Origin: Escherichia phage SUSP2
Length of the DNA: 64,000 nucleotides
Sequence record: KT454806
Reading direction: 5' to 3' (one strand)
Part shown: piece by piece, positions 47,395-64,000 of the stretch
Position numbering within the stretch: position 1 is the stretch's first letter
Layout: every line of letters begins with the position of its first letter
The notes under the pieces: generated by a model
Seen by the model: only the letters and a program-made list of their open reading frames with translations
Told to the model about the DNA's origin: nothing
Database searches by the model: none
Translations under genes and position numbers: made by a program

Positions 47395-47636
47395 TGACTT
47401 ACGTAATTTACTCCAAAACTGGTTGCCCTCAGTGTGAAACTGCAAAGAACTTTGCAAAGGCTCGTGGTATTGACCACGTTGTAAGAATGTTAGGGCAGGA
47501 TTATGAACTGTCAGACCTGATGGATATTGCACAGATGCCAGTTCGTCAGATGCCATTTATCATGAAGACTGATGATACTGTTCTTACGCCAGTTGGAACA
47601 CTACAAAACTTTATGGCAGAGGTGAACAATGCTTAA
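47394..47636 (+). CDS. nrdC: Glutaredoxin
   Basis: CPQC active-site motif near N-terminus; 80 aa; coupled to nrdB. Confidence 0.7.
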   Translation: MTYVIYSKTGCPQCETAKNFAKARGIDHVVRMLGQDYELSDLMDIAQMPVRQMPFIMKTDDTVLTPVGTLQNFMAEVNNA

Positions 47637-47835
47637 GCGTTTGTGGGAAGGTTTCACAGTTGATGCACCGATGATTGTCTTAGGTTTCTTCTTTGTGAAC
47701 CTGTTTATTGATATCAAACAAGGCGCTTTGTTTGGTGCTATGCTAGTATGGGTAATCTTTGAGATTCTAGAAATCCATCTTGACATTAGCGGCAAACTCA
47801 AAAAGTTTGTTGAGAAGATTTTCAAAAAGAATTAA
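47629..47835 (+). CDS. Small two-helix membrane protein
   Basis: 68 aa, two hydrophobic segments, charged C-terminus. Confidence 0.4.
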   Translation: MLKRLWEGFTVDAPMIVLGFFFVNLFIDIKQGALFGAMLVWVIFEILEIHLDISGKLKKFVEKIFKKN

Positions 47836-47841
47836 TATAAG

Positions 47842-47863
47842 GGTCTCTTCGGAGACCTTTTTC
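47842..47863 (+). terminator. Rho-independent terminator (UUCG loop)
   Basis: GGTCTC-TTCG-GAGACC followed by TTTTT. Confidence 0.65.
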
Positions 47864-47881
47864 GTATATAAAGGAGCACAA

Positions 47882-50023: not shown

Positions 50024-50033
50024 ATAGTTGACA

Positions 50034-50073
50034 AGGTGGTGTAGGTCTTGATAGGCTTGCATCACCTTTTTTA
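50034..50073 (+). terminator. Terminator after nrdD
   Basis: AGGTGGTG...CATCACCT stem (one G-T pair) followed by TTTTTT. Confidence 0.45.
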
Positions 50074-50178
50074 TTGGATGTTGGATATGGCAGAGAACAT
50101 CATTGGTTTATTCATCGGTTCTGTCTTACTAGGGTTCTTTCTAGGACTCCTTTATTGTGAATTAAGAGGAAAGTTAAA

Positions 50179-50577
50179 ATGTTTAAAATCTCCAAAGCGT
50201 TAATGGAAGTGCTGAAAGAATGCACGTTAGATGATGGAAAGTGTGAGAAAGAGCATCGTCGTGGCTCAAGCTTTTACATCACCAGTGAACTCACAATCAC
50301 TCAAGAGCTAATTGACTCAATCAAAGAGGATGAAAACTTAGTAGTTCCTGATTGGTTACTTGATAAAATTATTATAATCACAGGTACTTGGACTGATGAT
50401 TGGGGAACCGAGATTGGTGATATCTCGTTCTACAGCTACATTCAGAAGATGAATCCTAAGTATGTGGCCTTGATGACTGCTGCACAAGATAGTAAAATCT
50501 TGCAAGACTTTATTTACAAGCACTGTCCAGAATATGTCATGTCTTATGAAAAGATTGAAGTGGAGGTAGTAGAATGA
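50179..50577 (+). CDS. Hypothetical protein between nrdD and nrdG
   Basis: 132-aa ORF. Confidence 0.4.
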   Translation: MFKISKALMEVLKECTLDDGKCEKEHRRGSSFYITSELTITQELIDSIKEDENLVVPDWLLDKIIIITGTWTDDWGTEIGDISFYSYIQKMNPKYVALMTAAQDSKILQDFIYKHCPEYVMSYEKIEVEVVE

Positions 50578-51059
50578 ATTTTATGGAAATTCGAGAGTTC
50601 GATACAGCTAATGGTGAAGGTGCTCGTGTAAGTATCTTTGTAGCTGGTTGCAAGCATCACTGTGAAGGTTGTTTCAACAAAGAATCTTGGAAATTCAATG
50701 CAGGTAAAGAGTTTACTGGTTTTGATATGGCTGATATCTTAGCTATGTTGAAAGATGATGGTATAGAAGGTTTGTCAGTGTTAGGTGGCGAACCTTTAGA
50801 AGAACGAAACATTGACACTGTAGCGTATATCTGCAAGACTGTTAAAGAGCATTATCCAGAGAAATCTATCTGGCTTTGGACAGGTTTCCAACTTCATCAA
50901 AAAATTCACCATGAAGTGATGAAATATGTTGACGTGGTGATTGATGGTAAGTATGATGCTTCTAAACCAACGAACAAACCGTATCGTGGTTCTGATAACC
51001 AAAACCTTTGGAGAAAAGAATATGGGTGGCAAGGTGATTGTCAATGGAGAGCTGAGTAA
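50574..51059 (+). CDS. nrdG: Anaerobic ribonucleotide reductase activating protein (radical SAM)
   Basis: CxxxCxxC motif (CKHHCEGC) near N-terminus; coupled downstream of nrdD region. Confidence 0.75.
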   Translation: MNFMEIREFDTANGEGARVSIFVAGCKHHCEGCFNKESWKFNAGKEFTGFDMADILAMLKDDGIEGLSVLGGEPLEERNIDTVAYICKTVKEHYPEKSIWLWTGFQLHQKIHHEVMKYVDVVIDGKYDASKPTNKPYRGSDNQNLWRKEYGWQGDCQWRAE

Positions 51060-51339
51060 AGGTTTCCAAAAAGGAGAGATTCCAGTAATTGGTTGCAACA
51101 TGTCTGTGCTTGGTCAATATAAAGTGAATCAAGACAAACTGGAAGACTGGAAAGATTATACTCAGTCACTGTTTGGTAGTACAGGTCAGAGTGCTCTGGC
51201 AGAGATTGAAAAAGCTGGAACCTTTAAAGTAAAATTCAAAGGCCACAACTCCAATTTCTACATCACAAACCTTGTTGTAGGTGGTTCTGTTGTCGGGATT
51301 ACAGAAGAAGAACTTACACGGTTCTGCATCAAACTTTAA
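51022..51339 (+). CDS. Hypothetical protein
   Basis: ORF overlapping nrdG 3' end in another frame; start uncertain. Confidence 0.3.
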   Translation: MGGKVIVNGELSKGFQKGEIPVIGCNMSVLGQYKVNQDKLEDWKDYTQSLFGSTGQSALAEIEKAGTFKVKFKGHNSNFYITNLVVGGSVVGITEEELTRFCIKL

Positions 51340-51356
51340 AAGAGAGAGAGATTAAA

Positions 51357-51602
51357 ATGGGAATTTTTAGCAATATGAAAGCTGGTTTCTTAGCGGCACT
51401 GGCAAAAGCAGCAGCAATCGTCTCTATGACGGGTAAGCAAGTTGGTGTAGATGCTTCAGCAGTTGCACAGGTTCTTGCAAGCCAAATTGAACAGCAGCCT
51501 TACATCCACGTTGGACGTGGAAAAGGTGGTAAAAAACAAGCCCACCGTCAGACTGGTGCAGCAGCTATTAAACGTGCAGCTAAGAAAGCACGTAACAAAT
51601 AA
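51357..51602 (+). CDS. Small Ala-rich protein with basic C-terminus
   Basis: 81-aa ORF. Confidence 0.4.
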   Translation: MGIFSNMKAGFLAALAKAAAIVSMTGKQVGVDASAVAQVLASQIEQQPYIHVGRGKGGKKQAHRQTGAAAIKRAAKKARNK

Positions 51603-51613
51603 GGAAAATTGTC

Positions 51614-51925
51614 ATGAGCAAGATTTATAACACTCGTAAGCTTCAGATTTTAATGCTTTGCCAGTTCATGTATGACAAACACAATGCACACTATTGTGGT
51701 ACAGGCTTTTTAGCTTTTGGTGGTGAGTATACACCATTCAAAAAGGCTGTTGAGATGTATAATTCACAGAGTGAATCTGATAAAGAATTGCATCAACTGA
51801 AGTTGACTTATGACAAAAAGCACAAGAAGATTGTGTGTACAAACAACCTTGTCAAGCCATCTGAATCACTTAAGACAGATGTAAGCCAAGAAGACTTTAT
51901 GAGAGTCTTGAAAGAGCTTCAGTAA
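51614..51925 (+). CDS. Hypothetical protein
   Basis: 103-aa ORF followed by terminator. Confidence 0.4.
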   Translation: MSKIYNTRKLQILMLCQFMYDKHNAHYCGTGFLAFGGEYTPFKKAVEMYNSQSESDKELHQLKLTYDKKHKKIVCTNNLVKPSESLKTDVSQEDFMRVLKELQ

Positions 51926-51938
51926 TAAGTTATGATTA

Positions 51939-51964
51939 GGGAACTGTAAAAGGTTCCCTTTTTA
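51939..51964 (+). terminator. Rho-independent terminator
   Basis: GGGAAC-TGTAAAA-GGTTCCC followed by TTTTT. Confidence 0.6.
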
Positions 51965-51977
51965 TTTTGGAGAGAAA

Positions 51978-52493
51978 ATGTACTTATCTAACTTGAAACG
52001 TGCTGCTGCAATGTCTGTTCTAAGACTTGACTTTGATGAACGTCAAGAGTTTATTGATTCCCATCAGTATGACCCTTCCAATTCTAATCACATGGTTCTC
52101 TGGAATCGTGGGAAGTTCCGTGACAGTTCCCTCTTTGCATACTACCCTCACTATACAATTGACAACCTCTATGAGTACTGTGTTGTCAAGAACACTATTG
52201 CAACTCTTAACAAGCTTTGTCGTTATTCTGGCAAGCAAGCCTTTACATTAGGCCACCACAAGCCCGTTACAAAAGGTGGTGAGCATCACTGTGCAAACTG
52301 GTTTATCCAGACTAAGATTGATAACCAGAAGCAAGGTGAGAGGGTTTTAGATACTCCAAAGATGACTTATGAAGAACAAAAAGAGTATCTAAGAAATAAT
52401 ATGCCACCAATGCTTGACAGGGAATATGTAGTTCTGGCAATATCTCTCCTGTTGAAATTCGAGACTGTTTATAAGGCGACTTATCATGGCTAG
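51978..52493 (+). CDS. HNH-motif endonuclease-like protein
   Basis: GHHKPVTKGGEHHCANW...N motif resembling HNH. Confidence 0.45.
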   Translation: MYLSNLKRAAAMSVLRLDFDERQEFIDSHQYDPSNSNHMVLWNRGKFRDSSLFAYYPHYTIDNLYEYCVVKNTIATLNKLCRYSGKQAFTLGHHKPVTKGGEHHCANWFIQTKIDNQKQGERVLDTPKMTYEEQKEYLRNNMPPMLDREYVVLAISLLLKFETVYKATYHG

Positions 52494-52764
52494 AGCAGAT
52501 TGGGAAATAAAAGACCTTGTAAGTGAGGCTGGCAATGGTTGTGAGATGTATATGATTCGTGGTCATGTACCAGACTCATTAGCACTTGAGATGATTGACC
52601 ATCACACAAATGGATTCTACAAAGAACTTGGTGAACCAAATGTTGAACGCACTTGGACAAAACCAGTACCGGATGGCACAGGCAACTGTTCGGTTATCTA
52701 TCACATTGTGAATCCACAAAAATGTAAAACAGCTATGGCTGTAACCTTCGTAACTTTTGATTGA
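52486..52764 (+). CDS. Hypothetical protein
   Basis: 92-aa ORF. Confidence 0.35.
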   Translation: MARADWEIKDLVSEAGNGCEMYMIRGHVPDSLALEMIDHHTNGFYKELGEPNVERTWTKPVPDGTGNCSVIYHIVNPQKCKTAMAVTFVTFD

Positions 52765-52776
52765 GAGAGATTAAAG

Positions 52777-53658
52777 ATGAAAACTATTATTACCGTACTG
52801 TTGCACTCACAGAAGAAAGGTGCTCACCAAGAAGAGTTCAACATTATCCAGTTCCCGTCTGGAGAAATCGGTGGAAACTTCTCCGAAGAACTAGTGACCT
52901 ATGCTGAAAAGAATGCTTCCCAGATTGAGAACGTCATCTTCACTGTACAGGGTTACAACAAAGATACTCTGTTTGCTTTAGCTCTGGCAAAAGAAGCTAT
53001 TGATAAACTAATTCCTCAGAAAGCAACGATGAAGACTGTCATTTTTGCTTATCTGCCAAATGCTCGTTATGACCGTCACATGTTTAAAGGTGATGCAGCA
53101 GCACTGAAGGTGTTTGCAAATCTTGTCAATGCAATGGATTTTGATGCAGTATGTGCTCTGGATGCTCATAGTGATGTTGCAGATAACTTGTTCAAATGCT
53201 TTCAGAACATCCCTCAAAAAGAGGTTGCAGCACACTATGCAAGTGAGCCAACTATTGATTTCTTGGTAGCACCAGACGCAGGAGCAGCTAAGAAGATTGC
53301 AGAGACGGCTAAAGAGGTTGATAAACCTTACGTAACAATGGCTAAGGTTCGAGACCTGAAGACTGGTGAGATTACAGGTATGCGTCTGCTTGACGATGTA
53401 GACCTGACTGGTAAAACTGTTCTCATTATTGATGATATCTGTGATGGTGGTCGTACATTCATTGAAGCAGCCAAGTATCTTCGTGAAGCTGGAGCAGCTA
53501 AAGTTGAACTGTATGTAACACACGGTATTTTCTCAAAAGGTGTTGAAAACCTGCTTGACAATGGGATTTCACACATCTACACTACAGACTCTTTAGGCAG
53601 TTCGAAAGACCGTGGTCTTACTCATTTCGGTCAAGTAACTGTAGCAAACATTTACTAA
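52777..53658 (+). CDS. Ribose-phosphate pyrophosphokinase-like protein (Prs homolog; possible ADP-ribose pyrophosphate synthetase)
   Basis: Type I PRTase PRPP-binding motif VLIIDDICDGGRT; about 293 aa; directly upstream of NAMPT-like gene. Confidence 0.6.
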   Translation: MKTIITVLLHSQKKGAHQEEFNIIQFPSGEIGGNFSEELVTYAEKNASQIENVIFTVQGYNKDTLFALALAKEAIDKLIPQKATMKTVIFAYLPNARYDRHMFKGDAAALKVFANLVNAMDFDAVCALDAHSDVADNLFKCFQNIPQKEVAAHYASEPTIDFLVAPDAGAAKKIAETAKEVDKPYVTMAKVRDLKTGEITGMRLLDDVDLTGKTVLIIDDICDGGRTFIEAAKYLREAGAAKVELYVTHGIFSKGVENLLDNGISHIYTTDSLGSSKDRGLTHFGQVTVANIY

Positions 53659-53667
53659 AATTAATCA

Positions 53668-53689
53668 GGGGCTGAAAAGCCCCACTTTG
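53668..53689 (+). other. Hairpin GGGGCT-GAAA-AGCCCC without clear U-tract
   Basis: Inverted repeat between the Prs-like and NAMPT-like genes. Confidence 0.35.
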
Positions 53690-53704
53690 AGAGAGATTAA
53701 AAAC

Positions 53705-55531
53705 ATGTCTAAATCAATCTATGCAGTTCCAGCAGGTCTTAATGCAGATGCTTACAAAGCTGGTCACATCTACCAGTATCCAAGTGCAACTCAGTATCTG
53801 ATGCTGAACCTTACACCTCGTGGTGATAAGTGGTTCAACACTCCTTTGGAGACTGATGGTGTAGTTGCTTTTGGTATCCAACGTTTTGTGAAAGATTATC
53901 TGGTAGACCACTGGAATGCAACGTTCTTTGAACGTGATAAGAAAGAAGCCGTTGATGAAATCTTAGAAATCATGAATGGTGTACTTGGTGCAGATGCCAT
54001 TGGTCGCCAACATTGGGAAGAACTTCACGACTTAGGTTATCTGCCAGTGGCAGTATACTCTGTTGAAGAAGGTACAATTGTCCCTATGCGTGTTCCAATG
54101 ATTATCTTCAAAAATACCGTTGAAGGTTTCCATTGGGTAGCTGGTTATCTGGAAGATGCTTTCTCTGCTGAAATCTGGAAAGCTTGTACCATTGCAACTA
54201 TTGCATTACATTACAAACGTATCTGTAAAGGTTGGGCTGACAAGACTTGTGACAATGACTTCCATCTGCCTTGGCAGTGTCACGACTTTGCAATGCGTGG
54301 TATGTCTGGTTTCACAGACGATGCCTTCAATGCTGTAGGCCATCTTACCAGCTTCAAAGGTACTGATAGCTTCCCTGCTGTGTATACTGCTAAACGTGCA
54401 TATGGACAGTTCATGACTGTAAGTGATATTGGTAACTCTGTTCCAGCAACTGAACACTCTGTGATGTGTGCAAACATTGCATGGAATATGAAAGACCTGT
54501 CAGAAGATGATATTCACTCACAGTATATTATGCAGTCTGATAGCTTACTGGATGCTAAACGTTGGCGTGGTGAGGTTAAAACCTTTGAACATCTTTTGGT
54601 AGATGTTTATCCAACTGGTATTGCAAGTGTTGTTTCTGATACTTACAACTTCTGGCGCACAGTTACAGAGGTTCTCCCAGAACTTCGTGAAGTAATCCTG
54701 AAACGAGATGGAAAACTGGTAATCCGTCCAGACTCTGGTGACCCTGTACACATTGTTACTGGCTATCGTGCAATTGAGTGGGAAAATGCTAAAAGTATGT
54801 ATTACAAACATATGTCAACCATTTCCCCTAACAACACTTATCTGCTTGATGCAATCTTGAATTGTAGCATGTCAGATATGGGTTATGGTTTCTCTGCTTG
54901 GTTAATCTCTGAAGGTTATGAGTTAGTTGTTGATGCAGAAGACTTTAACGTTGCTGATACAGTTAATCTGAAAGAAACTTACAAGACTGGTAAAGTTGTT
55001 GTTAAACGTATGCTGACAGCAGAAATTGATGGTGCTATCAAGACTCTATACAATATCTTTGGTGGAACTGTAAACGCTAAAGGCTACAAAGTTCTTGATG
55101 AGCACATTGGCTTAATCTACGGTGATTCTATCACTCTGGAACGTGCTGAAGAGATTCTTAGTCGTCTTGCTGAAAAGGGCTTTGCAAGTTCTAACGTTGT
55201 TTTTGGTGTTGGTTCATACACTTACCAGTACCTGACTCGTGATACCTTTGCATTCGCTGTCAAAGCAACTCTTGCACAGATAGATGGGGAAGAAATCATG
55301 CTGGCAAAAGACCCTAAAACTGATAGTGGTCTGAAGAAGTCTGCTTTTGGCGGTGTAGTCCCTATGTGGGATGGTGATAAGCTGGAAGCTGTAGATGGTT
55401 TTGGTTTTGCAGAATTTGAAAGCGTACTAGATAACCCTCAGTGTGCTCTGAAGTTGGTATTCTGTGACTCTCAGCCATATGGCTACGTTAATCTTCGTGA
55501 TGTACGAAATGTTATTGACAGACAGCTTTAA
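53705..55531 (+). CDS. Nicotinamide phosphoribosyltransferase family protein (NAMPT-like; possible Namat)
   Basis: FKGTD...YG...GNSVPATEHS motif matching the NAMPT active-site region; ATG at 53705. Confidence 0.75.
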   Translation: MSKSIYAVPAGLNADAYKAGHIYQYPSATQYLMLNLTPRGDKWFNTPLETDGVVAFGIQRFVKDYLVDHWNATFFERDKKEAVDEILEIMNGVLGADAIGRQHWEELHDLGYLPVAVYSVEEGTIVPMRVPMIIFKNTVEGFHWVAGYLEDAFSAEIWKACTIATIALHYKRICKGWADKTCDNDFHLPWQCHDFAMRGMSGFTDDAFNAVGHLTSFKGTDSFPAVYTAKRAYGQFMTVSDIGNSVPATEHSVMCANIAWNMKDLSEDDIHSQYIMQSDSLLDAKRWRGEVKTFEHLLVDVYPTGIASVVSDTYNFWRTVTEVLPELREVILKRDGKLVIRPDSGDPVHIVTGYRAIEWENAKSMYYKHMSTISPNNTYLLDAILNCSMSDMGYGFSAWLISEGYELVVDAEDFNVADTVNLKETYKTGKVVVKRMLTAEIDGAIKTLYNIFGGTVNAKGYKVLDEHIGLIYGDSITLERAEEILSRLAEKGFASSNVVFGVGSYTYQYLTRDTFAFAVKATLAQIDGEEIMLAKDPKTDSGLKKSAFGGVVPMWDGDKLEAVDGFGFAEFESVLDNPQCALKLVFCDSQPYGYVNLRDVRNVIDRQL

Positions 55532-55546
55532 ATAAGTATTATAAGA

Positions 55547-55568
55547 GGCTCCTACGGGAGCCTTTTTA
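55547..55568 (+). terminator. Rho-independent terminator
   Basis: GGCTCC-TACG-GGAGCC followed by TTTTT. Confidence 0.65.
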
Positions 55569-55584
55569 ATTTCTGGAGAATGCT

Positions 55585-55920
55585 ATGAAAATCAAACAGA
55601 TGAATATTAATATGGTCTTAGAAGAAAATTGGGATGATATCAAACGCCCTGAAGATGGTCACAAGTTCATTAATCAAATCTTGGTAGCAGCAAGAGATGA
55701 ACTTCAAGGTGAAGTGGTTGCCACGCTGACTATGAAGATTTACGTTAAAGGTCTTCCACAAAATCACCAATTAGCACTTGACCAATTCTTAGACGGATTC
55801 TATAATCCGAACAAAACAATACTAGAAGAGAACTTTGCAGTTGCCTCAAGTATTGTTCATGACCGTAGTTTCATTCTGTACAAACATGTTGGAGAAAAGT
55901 TATGCAAGGTTATTGGTTAG
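55585..55920 (+). CDS. Hypothetical protein
   Basis: 111-aa ORF. Confidence 0.4.
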   Translation: MKIKQMNINMVLEENWDDIKRPEDGHKFINQILVAARDELQGEVVATLTMKIYVKGLPQNHQLALDQFLDGFYNPNKTILEENFAVASSIVHDRSFILYKHVGEKLCKVIG

Positions 55921-56084
55921 AATTAATCATGTCATTTGGTGGCCTGATTGTAATTGGATACCTTCTGGCTAAACACTTCTTCGGTACAGAAGAGTGTGAA
56001 GATTGTGATGGTACAGGTCTGGTAGGTTATGGGTGTTGTCCTTATTGTGGTGGAACTGGAAAGAAACATAACGGAAACAGTTGA
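55902..56084 (+). CDS. Membrane-anchored mini-protein with DnaJ-type CxxCxGxG zinc-finger repeats
   Basis: N-terminal hydrophobic helix; CEDCDGTG and CPYCGGTG repeats. Confidence 0.4.
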   Translation: MQGYWLELIMSFGGLIVIGYLLAKHFFGTEECEDCDGTGLVGYGCCPYCGGTGKKHNGNS

Positions 56085-56109
56085 CAATCGGTGCAGAGTT
56101 CTTTAAAGT
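56081..56109 (+). promoter_or_regulatory. Sigma70-like promoter (TTGACA-N17-TAAAGT) for rIIA-like gene
   Basis: -35 at 56081-56086, -10 at 56104-56109. Confidence 0.45.
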
Positions 56110-56142
56110 CCCTGCATCAAACAAACCAAGAGGAAAGTTATT

Positions 56143-58509
56143 ATGCGCATGGTAAATGACCACGCAGAGGTGATTAAGAGTTCATCTTCATTAGAAACTT
56201 CTCAGGCGTCTATCACGATGACTCCTGAAATGTTCAGCCTGTTAAGTTCAGGTGTTTACACTTTTAAAGAACGTGCGGTAATCCGTGAGTTGTCATGTAA
56301 TGCTGTAGACACCCACAAAGAAGCTGGAAAAGAGAATGTGCCGTTCCGTGTACATTTGCCAACTCGTTTTGACCCATACTTTGAAGTCCGTGACTTTGGT
56401 ACTGGTCTGACTCACGAGAAGGTCATGTCTTTGTACCTGAACTATGGAGCTTCTACTAAGAATGACTCGAATGACTACATCGGTGCTATGGGTATCGGTT
56501 CAAAGTCACCTTTTGCAATCGCACAGTCATTCACCGTGTCCAGTTACGTAGATGGTGTGGTTAACAAGTACTCTGTATATCTTGAGAATGGTATTCCTCA
56601 AGTTACTAAACTGACGACCAACCCGACTACCGAACCAAATGGTTTAGCAGTTCGTGTTGCAGTAGCTGACCACCGTATTCAGAAGTTCCATGAAGAAGCG
56701 AGCAATGTATTCTCTTACTTCAAATTGAAACCAGAATGCAACGTAGAATACCGTGATATTCTTAGCGAGATGACTACCATTGTCCGTGAAGATGGTGTTT
56801 ACGATGCGATGAAGTATAAAGAGAACTGGCGTTCAAGCAATAACCAGACAAATTTCAACGTTGTCATGGGTAACATTGCTTATCCTGTTGACTTAGGAGA
56901 CTTGCTTGGTGCAGAGTTCACCAATGTTCTTCCTACATTCTTCCGTAACGCTGTAGACCTTGTTAACATCTACATGCCGATTGGTTCAGTAGCTATCGCT
57001 GCATCTCGTGAAGCATTGCAGATGAATGAGACCACCAAGAAAGCAATTACAGATGCAGTTAAAAAGATTACTGCAACAATTGTAGAAGATGTGGTAAAAC
57101 GTATTGCTGACGAACCAACTCTGGTAGATGCAGCACAGGCTTATGCAGACTTGCGAGCTAACTCTCGTGAAATCTTCCAGCATGTGTTTACCCGTCTTGA
57201 GTGGAATGGTCAGAACTTAAGTAACCTTGAGCAGAAACTTTTAAAGATTCGTCAAGGACAATTAAGTAATCAAGATGGTACTCCAAAGTTTGCGACTGAT
57301 GATTCAGGAGCTTTGGTTGTTGATAAGAGTGGTAATCATATTCCAGTGATTGGCAATCTTTATGAACCTGTTGCATACTTTAAGTACAGCCAGCTTGAGA
57401 ACAAAATTCGTGCTACTTCAGCGTTGTACACTCAGGAGGGTGCAAACTTCAGTATCTTCGGTGCAATGAGTAAGAACAAAATGTCTAACTATTTGTTCCT
57501 TATCAATGACCGTCGAAACAAAAATGGTACTGAAAAGACTGTAGGACGTAATCAGATTATTCGTGGTGCTTGCCGTGACCGTGAAAATGAAGAACCAAAC
57601 TTCCGTCGCTATAATGGTATTGTATACGTCTTCTCTGATGAGAAAGAGTTAGATGATTTTATCAGTCTTCACATGCTTGATAAGAGTCTGTTGACGATTG
57701 TTAAAATGTCTGACAAAGAGCATCACTATGTGAAGCGTACCGTGACTCGTGGTGTTGTAAAACTCTACAAAGCTTCTGTACATGAGCATGGAGTGTCCTA
57801 TGGAGAAGTGAAAGAAAACTTTGATGATATTGAAGAACCTCAGTATTATATCAAGGCTCAAAGTGATGAGGTTCTTGGTGGTATATTTAACTGTTCTCCA
57901 GAGGCGGCTGCTAAGGTATCTGCACGTTTAACTGGACAGTCAGTTTATGTGTTCCGTAAAGCAAACTGGAAGAAAATTCCTGAAGACTGGTTAGAAGTAA
58001 ATCAGCAAGTCTTCAAAGATTCTATCACTGACATTCACTGGATTGAGTTTAACCGTTTTGTAACTCGTGAATGGTGTAGTTCAAACTGTGATATCACTGA
58101 TAAAGGTGTTATTGCCAGAACGTTCCAGTTTGGTGATAAGAAGTGCTCAAGAGGTTATGTCTACAGTGCTGACTACAGCAAACGTATCTTCTTGGAAGGG
58201 AACGAAGAGGCTGTAGAAGCAATGTTTGGTAAGCTGGCTTATGTCGCTTCACCAATTGCTTATAAGGACGTTACAAGTGTTCTGCATGACTTACAACGCT
58301 TGACAAGAGCCAAGAGTAAGGTACACTCTGCAATCTACAATGCAAGAGAACGTATTAAGCAGAAACTGAGTGTGTACTTCACAGCACGTAAAGCAGAAAA
58401 CTTCTTGCTTTCTAACTTAGACTGGAATAAAGTAAGTCCTGTTGAAGTTGGTCAGTTCTTAGGATTTGATGTTAAGTGCATCCCTGAAGGAACTCAGGCT
58501 TTTGATTAA
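56143..58509 (+). CDS. rIIA: rIIA-like protein (GHKL ATPase-like N-terminus)
   Basis: 788-aa ORF, N-terminal IRELSCNAVD GHKL-type N-box; immediately upstream of clear rIIB homolog. Confidence 0.65.
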   Translation: MRMVNDHAEVIKSSSSLETSQASITMTPEMFSLLSSGVYTFKERAVIRELSCNAVDTHKEAGKENVPFRVHLPTRFDPYFEVRDFGTGLTHEKVMSLYLNYGASTKNDSNDYIGAMGIGSKSPFAIAQSFTVSSYVDGVVNKYSVYLENGIPQVTKLTTNPTTEPNGLAVRVAVADHRIQKFHEEASNVFSYFKLKPECNVEYRDILSEMTTIVREDGVYDAMKYKENWRSSNNQTNFNVVMGNIAYPVDLGDLLGAEFTNVLPTFFRNAVDLVNIYMPIGSVAIAASREALQMNETTKKAITDAVKKITATIVEDVVKRIADEPTLVDAAQAYADLRANSREIFQHVFTRLEWNGQNLSNLEQKLLKIRQGQLSNQDGTPKFATDDSGALVVDKSGNHIPVIGNLYEPVAYFKYSQLENKIRATSALYTQEGANFSIFGAMSKNKMSNYLFLINDRRNKNGTEKTVGRNQIIRGACRDRENEEPNFRRYNGIVYVFSDEKELDDFISLHMLDKSLLTIVKMSDKEHHYVKRTVTRGVVKLYKASVHEHGVSYGEVKENFDDIEEPQYYIKAQSDEVLGGIFNCSPEAAAKVSARLTGQSVYVFRKANWKKIPEDWLEVNQQVFKDSITDIHWIEFNRFVTREWCSSNCDITDKGVIARTFQFGDKKCSRGYVYSADYSKRIFLEGNEEAVEAMFGKLAYVASPIAYKDVTSVLHDLQRLTRAKSKVHSAIYNARERIKQKLSVYFTARKAENFLLSNLDWNKVSPVEVGQFLGFDVKCIPEGTQAFD

Positions 58510-58516
58510 AAATAGT

Positions 58517-58545
58517 TTGACAGGGGCTGCAAAGCCCCTTAGAAT
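58517..58545 (+). promoter_or_regulatory. Sigma70-like promoter (TTGACA-N17-TAGAAT) with GNRA hairpin in spacer
   Basis: -35 at 58517-58522, -10 at 58540-58545; spacer is GGGGCT-GCAA-AGCCCC. Confidence 0.5.
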
Positions 58546-58588
58546 ACGAACCACTAAGTAATATTAACTAACAAGAGAGAGTAATAAG

Positions 58589-59698
58589 ATGACTACTAAA
58601 ACTAAAGCACAAATCGACGCAGAAATCTATGCACTGGTTCAGGAAGGTAAACTGACCAAAACTGCCATTGCAATGAAGTATAACACTTCTACTCGTTCCG
58701 TTGGTCGTGCTGTAGAACGTCACGAAGCAACACTGAAAGGTGCTAAGAAAGCAACTTCCAAGCCAGCTAAACAGACTCTGAAACAGATTGCAAAGTCTGC
58801 TAAGAAGACGTCTACTAAGCCAGTTGCCAAGGCTGTTAAAGAGGCAGTGAAGAAAGAACCTGTTAACCAACTGCACGAAGCAATGCAGAATGGTAACCAG
58901 ATTGAGTACATGATTACTGGTGATTCTGTTATCATGACTTTCGGTGCAGATTCTGAAATCGTTGAGTCTACCCATCCGAACTATAAAGAAATCGTGATGG
59001 CTGTTGTAGGTGGTGAGTACAAGAAAGCTTTCGAACTGATGAACATTCGTAAGTCTATTGAGAACTTCACTCAGGGTGCAATCACCATCAAAGGCGATAA
59101 CCTGTACTACGGTGCTGTTCAAATGCGTTCCACTCTGGTAGACCGTATTCTGGATATGATGAAAGCTGGCGACGATGGCTTTAAACGTCTGGTAGCATTC
59201 TTCGAAAAACTGATGGAAAACCCATCCAAAGATTCTGTAGAACAACTTTGGGGATTTGTATCCCACCTTGACGTTGAGATTGATGAAGAAGGTTATATCA
59301 TCGGTTGGAAGAAAGTTACAACTCGTGGTGGTAAGCTGTTTGACTCCCGTACCTGCAAAGTTCCTAATGATTTGGGTAACGTTGTAGAGATGCCACGCTG
59401 GATGGTTGATAATGACCGTACAGTAACTTGCTCTCAAGGTCTGCATGTTGGTGCTTGGGATTATGTCCGTAGCTTCTCTGGTGACACTATCCTGAAAGTT
59501 CGTGTACATCCACGAGACGTTGTATCTGTACCAACTGACTACCAAGATATGAAAATGCGAGCTTCCCGTTATGAAGTTGCAGCAATTGTGAATGGTCAGC
59601 GTCAGGTTGTCAAAGAGTGGGATGGCAAATCTGAAGCACTGCATGTTGTTGTAGGCACTGCTGGTGAACTGATTTCTCAGCGTAAACGTGAAATCTAA
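58589..59698 (+). CDS. rIIB: rIIB-like protein
   Basis: Multiple blocks recalled from T4 rIIB (LVDRILD, ENPSK, CSQGLHV, VHPRDVVSVP-DY-D-KMR). Confidence 0.75.
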   Translation: MTTKTKAQIDAEIYALVQEGKLTKTAIAMKYNTSTRSVGRAVERHEATLKGAKKATSKPAKQTLKQIAKSAKKTSTKPVAKAVKEAVKKEPVNQLHEAMQNGNQIEYMITGDSVIMTFGADSEIVESTHPNYKEIVMAVVGGEYKKAFELMNIRKSIENFTQGAITIKGDNLYYGAVQMRSTLVDRILDMMKAGDDGFKRLVAFFEKLMENPSKDSVEQLWGFVSHLDVEIDEEGYIIGWKKVTTRGGKLFDSRTCKVPNDLGNVVEMPRWMVDNDRTVTCSQGLHVGAWDYVRSFSGDTILKVRVHPRDVVSVPTDYQDMKMRASRYEVAAIVNGQRQVVKEWDGKSEALHVVVGTAGELISQRKREI

Positions 59699-59715
59699 TA
59701 AGTAAATTCTTAAAG

Positions 59716-59738
59716 GGCTGCTTCGGCAGCCTTTTTTA
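59716..59738 (+). terminator. Rho-independent terminator (UUCG loop)
   Basis: GGCTGC-TTCG-GCAGCC followed by TTTTTT. Confidence 0.65.
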
Positions 59739-59798
59739 TTTGTGTTTTGTGCAGAGTAGTGTATAATTGCTTGCATGTTGAACTAAACAGGAGAACCA

Positions 59799-60350
59799 AT
59801 GAAGAAGTTCATTTTAGGTTTGTGCTTATTCTTAACAGCACATTTGGCAGTCGCTTCAGACTGTCCAGAATTATCCATCAGTCAGAAAACAAACATGCTT
59901 AAAGCTTATCACTACGGTGAGAAAGAGATGGGTAAAGGTTGGGGATTAACCTTAGCCGCTATAGCCTTACAAGAGTCAGAGTTAGGTCTTCGTCTTGAAA
60001 ATAAAAAGACTCACGATTATGGATTGTTCCAGAATCACTTGAAGACTGTTGTAAAGCGTAACAAAGTTAGCCCAAGCGTAGCTAAGAAGAAACTTATCAG
60101 AGACTTCAATTATGCTGCAAAGGAGACACACAAAGAGCTTCAGTTCTGGACTAAGGTTCATGGTAATCCTAATGGGAAATACTCTTTACAGCGTGTCTTA
60201 GCTTCATATAATGCAGGGTACTCATACCGCATTCCAAAAGCTAGACAATACTCTCAAGATGTGTACAATAACATGAAGGTGCTTGCTCAATGTGAGTTTG
60301 CAACAAACATCAAAAAGGTTAAACATGAGCGAATTAAAACAATTGGATAA
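59799..60350 (+). CDS. Secreted lytic transglycosylase (SLT domain) with signal peptide; endolysin candidate
   Basis: Signal peptide MKKFILGLCLFLTAHLAVA; SLT motifs QESELG, GLFQ, SYNAGYSY. Confidence 0.55.
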   Translation: MKKFILGLCLFLTAHLAVASDCPELSISQKTNMLKAYHYGEKEMGKGWGLTLAAIALQESELGLRLENKKTHDYGLFQNHLKTVVKRNKVSPSVAKKKLIRDFNYAAKETHKELQFWTKVHGNPNGKYSLQRVLASYNAGYSYRIPKARQYSQDVYNNMKVLAQCEFATNIKKVKHERIKTIG

Positions 60351-61020
60351 GGTATTTTGTCACGCTTACGATATCAATCCTCTGGCTATAGATATCAGTG
60401 CTGCAAGCTGGACAGACCTTATGAAAGAAGACTTTGCAGATACTGCAAGGGCTGTTGAATGTGACTTCAAAGATTTTCATTCATCTGCTGAAACAGTTCT
60501 CTGTACAGACCTTCAAACAGGTAAGTCAGTATCAGTTAAGCGTGACAGCTTAATCTTGGTTGCAAAAGACCTTGATATGAAGAAGCCAATGGTTTTAACA
60601 GATATTGATGGCGTTCTCACTAAGTTTGATAAGCCAACAAACTCAACGTATCTGGAAGATGGAACTCTGTCACAGTATACAAACTTGATTGAGTCAGTTG
60701 ATGCACAACCTACGTACATCTTTAACATCATTTCAGGCATTCACAAGAGTGCTGCAATCGGTGTTTTAACTGCTCGTGGTGAGTCTCAACGTGTACCAAC
60801 TCATTTGTTTATTGATAAACACATTGTAACTGACTACATGCTCTTTATGCGTGGTTTTGGTTCAAACAGAATCAGTGCAGAAAGTTTGAAAGTTCGTATG
60901 ATTCAGTCTTGCATTCTTCCGTACTATGATGTAGTATGCTTTATAGAAGATACAGTAAAGAATGTTGAGAAGGTTAAACGAATCCTTCCAGACATTAACA
61001 CAATGCTTATCAAACACTAA
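60325..61020 (+). CDS. HAD-like hydrolase (possible nucleotidase/phosphatase)
   Basis: DxDGV motif (LTDIDGVL); ATG at 60325 overlapping upstream gene end. Confidence 0.35.
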   Translation: MSELKQLDKVFCHAYDINPLAIDISAASWTDLMKEDFADTARAVECDFKDFHSSAETVLCTDLQTGKSVSVKRDSLILVAKDLDMKKPMVLTDIDGVLTKFDKPTNSTYLEDGTLSQYTNLIESVDAQPTYIFNIISGIHKSAAIGVLTARGESQRVPTHLFIDKHIVTDYMLFMRGFGSNRISAESLKVRMIQSCILPYYDVVCFIEDTVKNVEKVKRILPDINTMLIKH

Positions 61021-61032
61021 GAGAGAGAAATC

Positions 61033-61497
61033 ATGCAAAACATTATTACAGTAGCTATCGACGCATCAGCAAACAAATCACAGGTTGTTCGTGATATCAT
61101 TAAAAGCAACTTTGATGGCAAAATCTTTCGTGCTGTCAACGTAAAAGTGGATGGTGATATCCGTGAATATCGTGCTTTGCTGAACGTGTCAAAACACGTT
61201 AAAGGTGTCGGTTCTACTACAGCACATAAAGAAAACCTGATGACCATCTATGATATGGGTATGGCTTCAGAGTTGGGTGCTAAAGGAATTGTACAGTCCG
61301 GTGCTCCGTACCGTTCTTTCAATCTGGAAACTGCTCTTATGCTTTCCTTTACAAGTGGTTCACAAACTACCACGTATCTCTTTACTGATGCTGCAACGGT
61401 ATCTGCCATTAAGGATAGCACTATCAAGGCTGGCGTAGCTGCTGCTGCAAAAGCTTCAACGATGGCTGCAAATGTCCTTGCTAAAGTCCTCGGTTAA
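61033..61497 (+). CDS. Hypothetical protein
   Basis: 154-aa ORF with RBS, followed by terminator. Confidence 0.45.
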   Translation: MQNIITVAIDASANKSQVVRDIIKSNFDGKIFRAVNVKVDGDIREYRALLNVSKHVKGVGSTTAHKENLMTIYDMGMASELGAKGIVQSGAPYRSFNLETALMLSFTSGSQTTTYLFTDAATVSAIKDSTIKAGVAAAAKASTMAANVLAKVLG

Positions 61498-61509
61498 GGT
61501 TATGATACA

Positions 61510-61531
61510 GGCTCCTTCGGGAGCCTTTTTC
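61510..61531 (+). terminator. Rho-independent terminator (UUCG loop)
   Basis: GGCTCC-TTCG-GGAGCC followed by TTTTT. Confidence 0.65.
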
Positions 61532-61719
61532 GTTTTAGGAGATTGTATATGTACAAAACATATTTGATAACAGTCGTCATAAAGGGTGTTGAAATTACCC
61601 TCCCAATGGCATCTAAAACTACTTGTGAGGTAGAGGCTTTGCAAGAGTTAGTTGAGCAAGCTGAATTACTTTATCCACAAGCTGAATTTGTTTATCCAGC
61701 AGTGTAGAGGATACTAAAA

Positions 61720-62067
61720 ATGACATTTAAAGAGTTCTGTCAAGCCGCTTTCATAGTTGTTTTTCTGATTGGTGTAGGTGTTTGGGGCGGTTATTCTTAT
61801 AAGGATTACCAAGTCACTCAGACAGAATTGACTAATCAGAAGCTTATAAGCGTTGCTAAGGATGCTTACCAAGAAGGTTTAGCAAATCTTAGCTCCAATT
61901 ATAAAAATGATTTGAAAGATGTGCTTGCTAAAAACAAACACACAAAAGAGGTATTGACATATGAGAAGACTAAGCCAGAGTTTTATAACATTTGTGCTAC
62001 TGATACTTATGTCAGGGTGTTCAATGAACAAAGTGAACTCTACGTTCAAAAACTCCCAAGTAAGTGA
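61720..62067 (+). CDS. Inner-membrane spanin candidate (Rz-like)
   Basis: N-terminal TM anchor FIVVFLIGVGVWGG followed by helical periplasmic domain; contains embedded lipoprotein ORF. Confidence 0.45.
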   Translation: MTFKEFCQAAFIVVFLIGVGVWGGYSYKDYQVTQTELTNQKLISVAKDAYQEGLANLSSNYKNDLKDVLAKNKHTKEVLTYEKTKPEFYNICATDTYVRVFNEQSELYVQKLPSK

Positions 62068-62230
62068 AAGTGATAAGTACACTCAAGAAGAATCACGCTA
62101 TGTTGTCAAGGGCAATACAGGCACAGACCTGTCACAAGCCCTTGAATTTTATCGTGATGGGTACTATCAATGTACGATGAAAGCCAATAATTTAATTGAT
62201 ATGATTTTGTTAGGGAATAAGCAGCAATGA
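61961..62230 (+). CDS. Outer-membrane lipoprotein spanin candidate (Rz1-like), overlapped architecture
   Basis: Lipobox LMSGC after hydrophobic signal; AAGAGG RBS; starts inside the Rz-like gene in another frame. Confidence 0.4.
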   Translation: MRRLSQSFITFVLLILMSGCSMNKVNSTFKNSQVSESDKYTQEESRYVVKGNTGTDLSQALEFYRDGYYQCTMKANNLIDMILLGNKQQ

Positions 62231-62496
62231 GTCAAGAGACAGAACTGTTCTACACAGAAGGTTATTTACTTCTTCCAAGACCAAAAGATACTTATATGCG
62301 CATTGACTTCATGCCAATGGTTATGGATGATGTGATGTGTCATATCTTTATGAAGGGTATCACAACACAGTTGAAAGATACTGGAAGAGATTGCAAATTA
62401 AAGATTGACACTCATCCAGAAATCAAAGAGAATCACTACACATGGTTCTTAGAAGATACCAAAGAAATTATGGCAGTTCTCAAAACGAGGAAGTAG
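62227..62496 (+). CDS. Hypothetical protein
   Basis: 89-aa coupled ORF. Confidence 0.35.
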   Translation: MSQETELFYTEGYLLLPRPKDTYMRIDFMPMVMDDVMCHIFMKGITTQLKDTGRDCKLKIDTHPEIKENHYTWFLEDTKEIMAVLKTRK

Positions 62497-62654
62497 CATG
62501 TCAAGCAAAGAGAAGTTGATTGAACTCATCAAAGAATACGGTCAAGCACGTTACAACGTTGCTGGAGAAAGCTGTTGTGGTGATATTGACAGTATGACGA
62601 TGTGGGAAGAAACTTCAGAAGCAATTCTACAACAAATTGAAGAGGTAGTCTCTG

Positions 62655-62981
62655 ATGGAATTGAACGGTAAAACCTTCGTAGCTGTCATCCAAGATAGTG
62701 AAAAAGATATTGGCGTAGCACAAGTCACATATGGTAATGGTGAGTTCCTTTATGGTATTGTGGCAATGGTTGGTACAAGAGGCGACACACCAACCTTTCA
62801 TGATTGTGTAGATAAACTCGAAGAGTCTGTCAGGAATCATTGGTGTCTTATCTGGATGAATGAGAAAGATATCAAAGAGCGTTATACTAAACTTGGTATT
62901 GACATTGCTGGCATAGAGCATGTAGACTTGTACGAGTTGACAGAGAAAGTTCTCTTTGAAAAAGGTAAAGAAAATGGCTGA
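62655..62981 (+). CDS. Hypothetical protein
   Basis: 108-aa ORF. Confidence 0.35.
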   Translation: MELNGKTFVAVIQDSEKDIGVAQVTYGNGEFLYGIVAMVGTRGDTPTFHDCVDKLEESVRNHWCLIWMNEKDIKERYTKLGIDIAGIEHVDLYELTEKVLFEKGKENG

Positions 62982-63174
62982 TTTCTGCAAAGACTGTTCC
63001 ATCGAACTGTTTGGACGTGACACAGGGGACTTAAAAGGTCTTATCTCTGAAGAAGAGTTCAAAGCTGGTTACGCTATGCCAACACTCTGTGAAGGTTGTG
63101 GTGGAATCTGGGTAGACCATGAAGGACAGCGTGTGAAGCCTTCTAAAGATAAAGAATCATGGGAGAAATGGTAA
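62956..63174 (+). CDS. Zinc-ribbon protein
   Basis: CKDC...CEGC Cys pairs. Confidence 0.4.
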   Translation: MKKVKKMADFCKDCSIELFGRDTGDLKGLISEEEFKAGYAMPTLCEGCGGIWVDHEGQRVKPSKDKESWEKW

Positions 63175-63175
63175 G

Positions 63176-63958
63176 ATGGGTATTGTAAAAGTCATCAAAG
63201 GGGATATCTTCACAGACTTTGAAAAAGGTAAGTTTGATATCATCGGTCACGGTTGCAACTGTATGAATCTGATGGGTGCAGGTATCGCTGACAAGATTTC
63301 TAAGGGTTATCCAAAAGCCTATGAAACTGATGCTGAAGTCTACCGTGTAGCAGGAGGAAGAGAGCATAAACCTTGTCAGAAACTGCTTGGTAAACTCTCT
63401 GTAGCACGTCTTAAACAAGGTCGTATTGCTAACCTGTACACTCAGTTGAAGACTGGTAAAGATGCTCGCTACGATGCTCTTGAGAGTGCTCTGTTGAGCC
63501 TTAACCAGTACTGCAAAGTAAATCAATTGAAGAAAGTTGGTCTTCCAATGATTGGTGCAGGGATTGGTGGACTTGACCCGAAAGCTATTGTGGTGATTAT
63601 GAATCACATCTTGAAAGATGTTGATGTTTATCTTTACGTGTTTGAAGAGGCAATGTTTAATACTCTGTCAACATGGGGTAATCACAGTGAACCACAATAC
63701 TTTGCAGGTGTAGCCGTTGTCAACGAAGACGGAGTTACCCTCTTCAGGCATCGTAAGAACAAGGTACATCGGAGTAACCCTCCGGTTGAGCGAATGTCTC
63801 TAAGTAACGCTCAAGTTACCCCGCCGTTGAAAGGAAGTATGCAACGTGCAGTGACATTTGGAAGTGAGCCTGATGTGTACATTCTTGCAGCAAATGAGAA
63901 AGATGCTGAAGCAATTGTAGACATTTCTAATATCAAGTTCTTAGCTGCAAAGAACTAA
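63176..63958 (+). CDS. Macro-domain protein (ADP-ribose binding/processing) with C-terminal extension
   Basis: N-terminal GDIFT...IGHGCNCMNLMGAGIA and later LPMIGAGIGG resemble macro-domain Gly-rich motifs. Confidence 0.5.
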   Translation: MGIVKVIKGDIFTDFEKGKFDIIGHGCNCMNLMGAGIADKISKGYPKAYETDAEVYRVAGGREHKPCQKLLGKLSVARLKQGRIANLYTQLKTGKDARYDALESALLSLNQYCKVNQLKKVGLPMIGAGIGGLDPKAIVVIMNHILKDVDVYLYVFEEAMFNTLSTWGNHSEPQYFAGVAVVNEDGVTLFRHRKNKVHRSNPPVERMSLSNAQVTPPLKGSMQRAVTFGSEPDVYILAANEKDAEAIVDISNIKFLAAKN

Positions 63959-64000
63959 GAAACTCTGTAGCATATTCACAATAGACTAAGCCTTTCTTAT

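Follow-up and report, generated by a model that had tools for sequence, protein, structure and literature searches.

In Escherichia phage SUSP2, the adjacent genes rIIA and rIIB very probably represent orthologs of the T4 rII genes that make up an early-expressed, non-essential two-protein counter-defense module, directed against RexAB and, in this lineage, QatABCD, the phenotypes being those recorded in relatives. The discovery value is small, since both genes are already named in the GenBank records of the closest relatives, and hundreds of genomes of related phages carry the same annotation. Their counter-defense role has already been tested in the close relatives SUSP1 and Bas63; the plating of rII-deficient phage on Rex hosts, a check proposed in the first-pass annotation of this DNA, has in essence been published for congeneric SUSP1 (PMC11879866). 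The locus is useful as an example of the clustered counter-defense arm of the Ounavirinae (NARP1, rIIA/rIIB and a macro-domain protein), and its domain anatomy—a GHL ATPase and a variable C-terminal half in RIIA; a predicted helix-turn-helix (HTH), a linker and an orphan-fold domain in RIIB—may help work on the unsolved mechanism of rII.

The rIIA and rIIB genes and their expression signals

Within the window (the whole stretch of 64,000 nucleotides that was analyzed), rIIA occupies 56143..58509 (788 aa, 89 kDa) and rIIB 58589..59698 (369 aa, 41 kDa, pI 9.2), both on the + strand and 79 nt apart, exactly where the first-pass annotation had placed them; GAGGA lies 8 nt 5′ of the rIIA ATG. For rIIA, a profile search had been set beforehand as the test that could refute homology, and it firmly favored homology: the PHROG profile phrog_612 (RIIA lysis inhibitor) matched residues 1–766 over profile positions 1–712 of 725 (E = 2e-180), and the gene is named rIIA in relatives. 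T4 RIIA (NP_049616), a homologous GHL ATPase, is 32% identical over residues 23–320 (BLASTP, E = 3e-39); its C-terminal half has no detectable similarity (19% identity in a forced alignment). The assignment of rIIB, made earlier from blocks resembling the T4 protein, was borne out both by T4 RIIB (NP_049889; BLASTP, 35% identity over 329 aligned positions, E = 7e-61) and by phrog_609 (RIIB lysis inhibitor; E = 2.3e-86), a profile of 1055 positions that spans both the N-terminal domain of rIIA and the C-terminal domain of rIIB. The alignment with T4 RIIB is nearly full length and includes the N-terminal region modeled as an HTH, whereas the window protein is 57 aa longer and has a Lys/Ala-rich linker and a C-terminal tail. 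In T4 (Straboviridae), rIIA and rIIB are likewise adjacent and in the same order, and the literature gives them the same role against lambda RexAB.

The rIIA protein is 98% identical to cluster P0121, and the rIIB protein is 99.5% identical to rIIB of phage CHB7 and 99% identical to cluster P0001. A search of Pfam and NCBIfam returned no match for rIIB, in the case of Pfam because PF26926 is newer than the copy searched; this family is precomputed on all of the rIIB homologs listed, including P0001, the exception being a shortened 207-aa fragment (P0049). Across 66 homologs, the window protein included, 15 rIIB residues are invariant (F204, N211, G235, K241, R270, C281, G284, L285, H286, Y292, P308, P315, K322, R324, and Y328). 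A 402-aa minus-strand ORF antisense to rIIB (58568–59776) was rejected as a gene; it belongs to no PHROGs or NCBIfam family, and its Cys/Phe/Leu-rich composition is typical of an antisense frame.

Each gene had been credited with its own consensus promoter. This stood for the −35 element, a perfect TTGACA in both σ70-like candidates, and for the 17-nt spacer; the −10 hexamers proved to be near-consensus only, TAAAGT in the candidate 5′ of rIIA (56081..56109, + strand; 10/12) and TAGAAT in the candidate 5′ of rIIB (58517..58545, + strand; 11/12). Sites of the form TTGACA-N16–18-TANNNT number 19 in the window vs. 4.4 expected. The rIIA candidate is intergenic and correctly oriented; TTGACA is also found upstream of SUSP1 rIIA, the remaining spacer being different. 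The rIIB candidate is kept in mistaenkt, SUSP1, and Felix O1, with conservation of both hexamers and of the stem of a GC hairpin located inside the spacer (58522–58539; centroid −13.5 kcal/mol), the loop of which varies. The 56-nt stretch around this hairpin has a minimum free energy (MFE) of −14.6 kcal/mol (z = −2.6); because it has no T-run, the hairpin is not a canonical terminator. A hairpin resembling an intrinsic terminator follows rIIB (59712..59735, + strand), with a 10-bp stem containing 5 GC pairs, a GNRA-like loop and then the T-run TTTTTTATTT; the 51-nt stretch at this site has an MFE of −15.7 kcal/mol (z = −3.0), and the hairpin is predicted to close a rIIA–rIIB expression unit. 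A similar terminator-like site (55543–55566) lies after the Namat-like gene upstream.

Genomic setting and relatives

By nucleotide comparison, the phage is a Suspvirus coliphage (Ounavirinae, Felix O1-like). The rII locus is 94–96.5% identical to those of EP1, EcSzw-2, PC79-13, and mistaenkt, in whose records rIIA and rIIB are named, and the taxonomy lines of the SUSP1 and mistaenkt records give Ounavirinae; Suspvirus. Over 47.5–64 kb, identity to mistaenkt is ~83–99% (mostly 90–99%) per 500-nt segment and 94–97.5% over longer query stretches, and each RIIA or RIIB region compared is 96–99% identical. SUSP1 (Suspvirus SUSP1, NC_028808; YP_009199332, YP_009199333), of the same genus, has RIIA and RIIB proteins that are 73 and 86% identical; the first 47 kb of the window are 94–98% identical to SUSP1, whereas the early arm at 47.5–64 kb is only 68–89% identical. 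A recombination hot spot specific to rII, where the locus is 78% identical to SUSP1, was considered and rejected, divergence being equally high all along the arm, from 47.5 kb up to where the window ends. SUSP1, mistaenkt, EcSzw-2, EP1, PC79-13, and CHB7 share the gene order Adps-like, Namat-like, small ORFs, rIIA, rIIB, SLT-like, polynucleotide kinase and spanins; unlike in the window, the two NARP1 genes of SUSP1 are separated by an inserted HNH endonuclease gene, and its rIIA is preceded by an additional small ORF.

The two rII genes are neighbors, arranged in the same way, in all of the Ounavirinae records examined (mistaenkt, SUSP1, Felix O1, and Arno162). Salmonella phage Felix O1 (NP_944777, NP_944778), for which rIIA has been the conventional start of the genome since 2010 (PMC3185647), belongs to the same subfamily and has the same locus architecture, but is of a different genus; its RIIB is ~90% identical over the structured domains (HTH, C-terminal domain, and tail), and its RIIA is 75 and 58% identical in the N-terminal and C-terminal halves, respectively. 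Felixounavirus Bas63 is also of the same subfamily and a different genus; its g85 and g84 are rIIA and rIIB, and the adjacent g79 and g80 form NARP1.

The head and tail modules had been described as not T4-like, which Pfam confirms: the portal is Portal_Mu, the capsid Phage_cap_E (lambda-E-type), the sheath DUF3383, and the baseplate Baseplate_J. The portal, capsid, and sheath are thus not of the T4 gp20, gp23, and gp18 types; virion genes share with T4 only the broad Terminase_6N family and gp37-type tail-fiber tip domains, the virion modules as such being unrelated. Of 50,697 phage records, 2,905 contain an rIIB homolog, and these span many families; rII genes outside the T4-like phages are therefore commonplace and no surprise.

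The neighboring genes are those that the first-pass annotation had named, NAD-salvage genes on one side and lysis genes on the other. Upstream (52777–55531) lie a Prs-like (Adps-like) gene (52777–53658; matches to phrog_619, Pribosyltran, and TIGR01251) and a Nampt-like (Namat-like) gene (53687–55531), the product of which has SpbetaL1 Namat as its best solved match (9w5w/9w5x; E = 4e-124) and is closer to Namat than to Nampt (E ~1e-39). Taken at the level of these family matches, the two genes are the NARP1 operon (Adps + Namat), known as a NAD+-reconstitution counter-defense (bioRxiv 10.1101/2024.02.11.579819). Downstream, a secreted SLT-like protein is encoded directly 3′ of rIIB (59799–60350), and spanins follow 2 kb downstream (61720–62230). 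A macro-domain protein is encoded ~3.5 kb further downstream of rIIA/rIIB.

Predicted domain anatomy of RIIA and RIIB

The N-terminal half of RIIA (56143..57132, + strand; residues ~1–330) comprises, in the structural model, a GHL-type (gyrase/Hsp90/MutL) ATPase domain and a transducer-like domain, with the ATP-binding and catalytic signature intact. The N box on which the first-pass annotation had relied is present as E49-x3-N53-x2-D56 (ExxxNxxD), and is accompanied by G1 (D84-F-G86-T-G88; DxGxG) and G2 (G114-x2-G117-x-G119-S-K121; GxxGxG). Over residues ~20–330, the fold and the Bergerat ATP-binding motifs match GHL ATPases (Hsp90/TRAP1, the ATPase domains of type IIA/IIB topoisomerases, MutL, MORC, and SMCHD1). 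Scores against GHL-type families fall under every curated family cut-off, so the kinship is at the superfamily level only; the Hsp90 family is reached from RIIA only by a family profile, and a single-sequence search of PDB sequences gave chance-level matches (annexin IV, E ~0.08) for rIIA and nothing for rIIB. In contrast to the GHL ATPases, RIIA has no client-binding, Toprim, endonuclease or CW domain, and its C-terminal half (57133..58506, + strand; residues 331–788) has no recognized counterpart among them. This half is lineage-specific and fast-diverging, with only 65% identity to SUSP1; that the difference from the tested SUSP1 protein is concentrated in the proposed carrier of specificity (see below) weighs against carrying the SUSP1 phenotype over to SUSP2.

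RIIB is predicted to begin with a three-helix HTH (58604..58741, + strand; residues ~6–51) that resembles σ region 4 and the DNA-binding domains of DeoR and DnaA. This domain comes from structure prediction only, sequence-level HTH matches in RIIB itself all being below threshold; relatives of RIIB do have Pfam HTH matches. It is followed by a disordered Lys/Ala-rich linker (58748..58831, + strand; residues ~54–81, pLDDT <50 for 54–81), with 14 Lys and 8 Ala among the 44 residues at 49–92. Conservation within rIIB is lowest in the linker, with 68% identity to SUSP1 vs. ~91% for the flanking domains; a tandem DNA repeat, which was looked for since mistaenkt is annotated with a repeat_region there, was not found in the linker. 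The C-terminal α/β domain (58868..59695, + strand; residues ~94–369) is conserved and family-defining and has no solved structural counterpart; many rIIB homologs align over the C-terminal ~55–65% of the protein only. No transmembrane helix is predicted in RIIA or RIIB (maximum 19-residue Kyte-Doolittle hydropathy 1.43 and 0.80, respectively), a result that concerns membrane-spanning segments and not peripheral association, and both proteins lack a signal peptide.

Probable counter-defense role and competing explanations

The reading of this region as a defense/anti-defense neighborhood is backed by published work on relatives, which covers NARP1, Bas63 RIIA/RIIB against QatABCD, and RexAB. 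Knockdown of rIIA or rIIB by CRISPRi-ART in a five-phage panel that includes SUSP1 is reported to have reduced plating on lambda RexAB hosts and to have had no effect on hosts without Rex, the reduction being stated collectively for the panel (PMC11879866). Deletion of g84 or g85 in Bas63 lowered plating on QatABCD hosts by 10^4–10^5, and complementation restored it (PMC11482910). By analogy with these relatives, both genes would be needed in SUSP2 and both would be dispensable on defense-free hosts. Expression of RIIB alone triggers CARD-gasdermin systems (PMC10312443).

As to mechanism, the main reading includes several inferences. By analogy with the N-terminal dimerization of other GHL ATPases, RIIA would act as an ATP-driven dimerizing clamp, and its variable C-terminal half would be the specificity-giving or target-facing part. 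RIIA and RIIB would work jointly, in all likelihood at a step before the membrane effector, and would tie up or reshape either the nucleoprotein signal that switches the defenses on or their sensor protein, with no direct plugging of a channel. A link between the two proteins is favored by the adjacency of their genes in the Ounavirinae and by phrog_609, which spans parts of both, and RexA is a DNA-binding protein (PMC11077077). A further reading, rather unlikely to hold, is that RIIA and RIIB are not membrane proteins at all but a DNA-directed machine, in which a GHL ATPase clamp and a partner with a σ-region-4-like HTH hide or remodel a phage nucleoprotein intermediate, or capture a DNA-binding sensor (RexA or the Qat sensor), that sets off several unrelated abortive-infection systems; the fast-evolving C-terminal half of RIIA would then set which defenses a phage lineage can silence. 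If true, a classic of phage genetics that is almost seventy years old would gain its molecular mechanism.

The pair might instead act directly at the inner membrane on a pore or channel effector (RexB, QatB) and so prevent depolarization, which we regard as possible, if doubtful. The T4 RefSeq note “membrane integrity protector” and the classical T4 literature, in which both proteins are called membrane-associated, speak for such a site of action and against a sensor-level model; RexAB is said to kill by depolarizing the membrane (PMC8594841; PMC11879866), the PhageMaP authors propose membrane depolarization by QatB (PMC11482910), and basic RIIB with its Lys-rich linker could bind acidic phospholipids. 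However, no transmembrane helix is predicted for RIIA or RIIB, a GHL ATPase and a σ-4-like HTH are typical of nucleic-acid- or protein-remodeling machines rather than of membrane proteins, and RexAB and QatABCD would seem to offer a single inhibitor no obvious common membrane component.

A role of RIIB chiefly in transcription, with its HTH serving to adjust phage or host gene expression and the defense phenotypes following indirectly, is improbable. The predicted likeness to σ region 4, DeoR and DnaA and the Pfam HTH matches in relatives fit such a function, and Iyer et al. count T4 rIIB orthologs as specific transcription factors (PMC7824862), but in the many homologs aligned over the C-terminal part only, the HTH may be missing or have diverged, the invariant residues all lie in the C-terminal domain, and the phenotype needs rIIA, a GHL ATPase, as well. 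This alternative overlaps in part with the best explanation, DNA binding being common to both.

The rapid-lysis (“r”) phenotype of T4 rII mutants, the PHROG “lysis” category of both families, and the proximity of the spanins and the SLT-like protein would suit genes for lysis timing or lysis inhibition that delay lysis together with these neighbors. Such a role is highly improbable: the “lysis inhibitor” label is a legacy of the plaque phenotype rather than a demonstrated mechanism, both proteins are devoid of transmembrane segments and signal peptides, the five-phage knockdown is reported to have been without effect on Rex-free hosts (PMC11879866), the Bas63 deletions are viable and were scored specifically as QatABCD counters (PMC11482910), the putative holin is far off (SUSP1 homolog at ~23.1–23.5 kb), and the terminator-like hairpin after rIIB separates the two genes from those downstream.

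Identity and distribution of the rII genes

Escherichia phage SUSP2 carries rIIA and rIIB homologs, both on the plus strand and at the coordinates proposed in the first-pass annotation: rIIA occupies 56143–58509 (788 aa) and rIIB 58589–59698 (369 aa), with a gap of 79 nt between them. In profile searches, RIIA matched PHROG 612 ("RIIA lysis inhibitor") from end to end (E = 2e-180) and RIIB matched PHROG 609 ("RIIB lysis inhibitor"; E = 2.3e-86). Direct comparison with the T4 proteins gave 32% identity for RIIA over residues 23–320 (E = 3e-39), with no alignment to T4 RIIA in the C-terminal half, and 35% identity for RIIB across 329 positions (E = 7e-61). Because both proteins match these families and their T4 counterparts, the homology of rIIA, which had been left to a profile search to decide, is upheld; the presence of the gene pair is confirmed and the interpretation placed on it is supported.

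The locus is already known, being annotated in public records and experimentally characterized in relatives. It is 94–96.5% identical to the corresponding regions of EP1, EcSzw-2, EcSzw_1, Salmonella phage PC79-13 and mistaenkt, whose records name rIIA and rIIB or rII lysis inhibitors; mistaenkt and SUSP1 are classified as Caudoviricetes; Ounavirinae; Suspvirus. A tblastn search with RIIB found homologs in 2,905 of 50,697 phage records, including T-even relatives, Vi01-like, rV5-like and N4-like phages, and phages of Streptomyces, Microbacterium and Aerococcus. According to the BASEL paper (PMC8594841), which calls the rII locus "long-known yet poorly understood," it is "found in many large myoviruses" as well as in N4-like phages; rII genes in such a phage are nothing unusual. 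The phrog_609 profile (1055 positions) covers the rIIA N-terminal domain at positions 31–301 and rIIB at 755–1047, implying either natural RIIA-RIIB fusions in that family or a chimeric cluster. A 402-aa minus-strand ORF (58568–59776), antisense across all of rIIB, has an odd composition, belongs to no PHROGs or NCBIfam family, and is most likely non-coding.

Expression signals

Each gene had been credited with its own consensus promoter. A plus-strand site combining an exact TTGACA with a spacer of 17 nt does precede each, at 56081–56109 for rIIA and 58517–58545 for rIIB, but the −10 hexamers (TAAAGT, 10/12 overall, and TAGAAT, 11/12) make both near-consensus. The window contains 19 matches to TTGACA-N16-18-TANNNT, where 4.4 are expected and no shuffle reached 19, and the site before rIIB is kept in mistaenkt, SUSP1 and Felix O1. 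GAGGA lies 8 nt upstream of the rIIA ATG, and a terminator-like hairpin with a T-run (59712–59735, plus strand) begins 14 nt past the rIIB stop codon.

Within the spacer of the rIIB promoter-like site is a GC hairpin (58522–58539; AGGGGCU, loop GCAA, AGCCCCU) without a T-run. In mistaenkt, SUSP1 and Felix O1 the stem is preserved and the loop changes (GCAA, GAAA, TTGA); at the corresponding intergenic position, Pectobacterium phage Arno162 carries another hairpin. The element may serve as an RNA 3′-end or stability element for the rIIA mRNA, or as an attenuator.

Domain architecture and function

The N-terminal ~330 residues of RIIA appear to form an ATPase of the GHL type (gyrase/Hsp90/MutL) with a transducer-like domain, rather than a kinase-type GHKL domain. 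This assignment draws on the residues invariant in a 63-sequence alignment (N box E49, N53, D56; G1 D84, G86; G2 G114, G117, G119, K121; likewise R289/E290), on sub-threshold matches to Pfam HATPase_c_3 (23.5 bits, just under the 25-bit threshold) and to Hsp90-family and sacsin entries in NCBIfam, on a match of the family profile to TRAP1 that spans all three ATP-binding motifs (E = 2.5e-5), and on an AlphaFold2 model (mean pLDDT 86.0). The C-terminal half (331–788) is also confidently modeled, with conservation only among Ounavirinae-like homologs, and diverges faster than the N-terminal half: N- versus C-terminal identities are 83/65% for SUSP1, 53/29% for Arno162 and 31/19% for T4. Three parts are visible in the RIIB model (mean pLDDT 85.8), among them a disordered Lys/Ala-rich linker (residues 54–81, pLDDT <50) and a conserved α/β domain (about 94–369) that contains every invariant residue and has no match among solved structures.

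Homology, architecture and expression signals are established here by analysis of the window; phenotype is taken from the literature. The knockout experiment suggested in the first-pass annotation has, in essence, already been carried out within Suspvirus. Knockdown of rIIA or rIIB lowered plating efficiency in the presence of λ RexAB, according to a statement made collectively for a five-phage panel that includes SUSP1 (PMC11879866). The Felixounavirus Bas63 lacking g84 or g85 (RIIB and RIIA) plated 10^4–10^5-fold less well on the defense system QatABCD, and complementation of the deletions regained plating (PMC11482910). CARD-gasdermin defense is activated by T6 RIIB alone, and rIIB-null phages evade these systems (PMC10312443).

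By analogy with other GHL ATPases, RIIA would be an ATP-driven dimerizing clamp, with the variable C-terminal half turned toward the target. It could act jointly with RIIB, predicted to be a DNA-binding-type HTH protein, upstream of membrane effectors by masking or capturing a nucleoprotein signal or sensor. Such upstream action is plausible because RexA itself binds DNA (PMC11077077) and because a single module counters two seemingly unrelated systems, RexAB and QatABCD. Direct action of RIIA and RIIB at the membrane, the classical alternative, seems to us less likely; sequence-based prediction placed a transmembrane helix in neither protein. We consider the label "lysis inhibitor" a leftover of the plaque phenotype. 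A GHL clamp and an HTH partner may thus act on DNA or a sensor; to this question, the unsolved molecular mechanism of rII, the window contributes a domain anatomy that is suggestive rather than evidence.

Genomic neighborhood and virion module

The proposal of a defense/anti-defense neighborhood is reasonable in view of the genes around rII, and it is already documented. The upstream genes described as NAD salvage are, judged by similarity, the NARP1 pair for NAD+ reconstitution: a Prs-like (Adps) gene at 52777–53658 and a Namat-like gene at 53687–55531, whose product finds its best match among solved structures in the SpβL1 Namat crystal structures (9w5w/9w5x), at E = 4e-124 versus about 1e-39 for Nampt. 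The homologous Bas63 g79/g80 defeat SIR2-HerA (bioRxiv 10.1101/2024.02.11.579819; PMC11482910). At 614 aa, the Namat-like protein is ~115 aa longer than the solved SpβL1 Namat, and its match falls into three separate segments, suggestive of an insertion. In SUSP1 an HNH endonuclease gene separates the NARP1 genes, whereas in the window only 28 nt does.

Directly upstream of rIIA, 55902–56084 encodes a conserved 60-aa protein (phrog_3931) with a transmembrane helix at its N-terminus and two copies of the motif CxxCxGxG (CEDCDGTG, CPYCGGTG), a DnaJ-type zinc-finger pattern. Downstream of rIIB lie a 183-aa, putatively secreted SLT-like protein (59799–60350), a polynucleotide-kinase-like HAD protein and the spanins (61720–62230). 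The N-terminus of the SLT-like protein resembles a signal peptide, and its match to SLT transglycosylase is sub-threshold (20.5 versus 21.3 bits); it is variously named "endoribonuclease," "putative lysin" and "hypothetical protein" across GenBank records. A macro-domain protein (63176–63958; Pfam Macro, 31.4 bits against a 22-bit cut-off), called "phosphatase" in relatives, is a further candidate ADP-ribose-related counter-defense gene in the arm.

SUSP1 is 94–98% identical to the window over the first 47 kb (structural and replication parts), but identity falls to 68–89% from 47.5 kb to the window end, so divergence is a trait of the entire early arm rather than of rII; SUSP1 RIIA and RIIB are 73% and 86% identical to those of the window. 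Over 47500–64000, mistaenkt retains about 83–99%, mostly 90–99%, identity. With respect to SUSP1 the window is mosaic, and the diverged arm runs from the anaerobic ribonucleotide reductase gene (nrdD) onward. As had been noted, the virion module is not T4-like (Portal_Mu, Phage_cap_E, DUF3383 sheath, Baseplate_J); it shares with T4 a broad-family terminase and gp37-type tail-fiber tip domains. The tail fiber protein (20536–22884) carries T4 gp37_trimer and gp37_C domains and a weak Gp10_C match, and the gp37 domains beside a non-T4 portal, capsid and sheath likely reflect exchange of receptor-binding tips.
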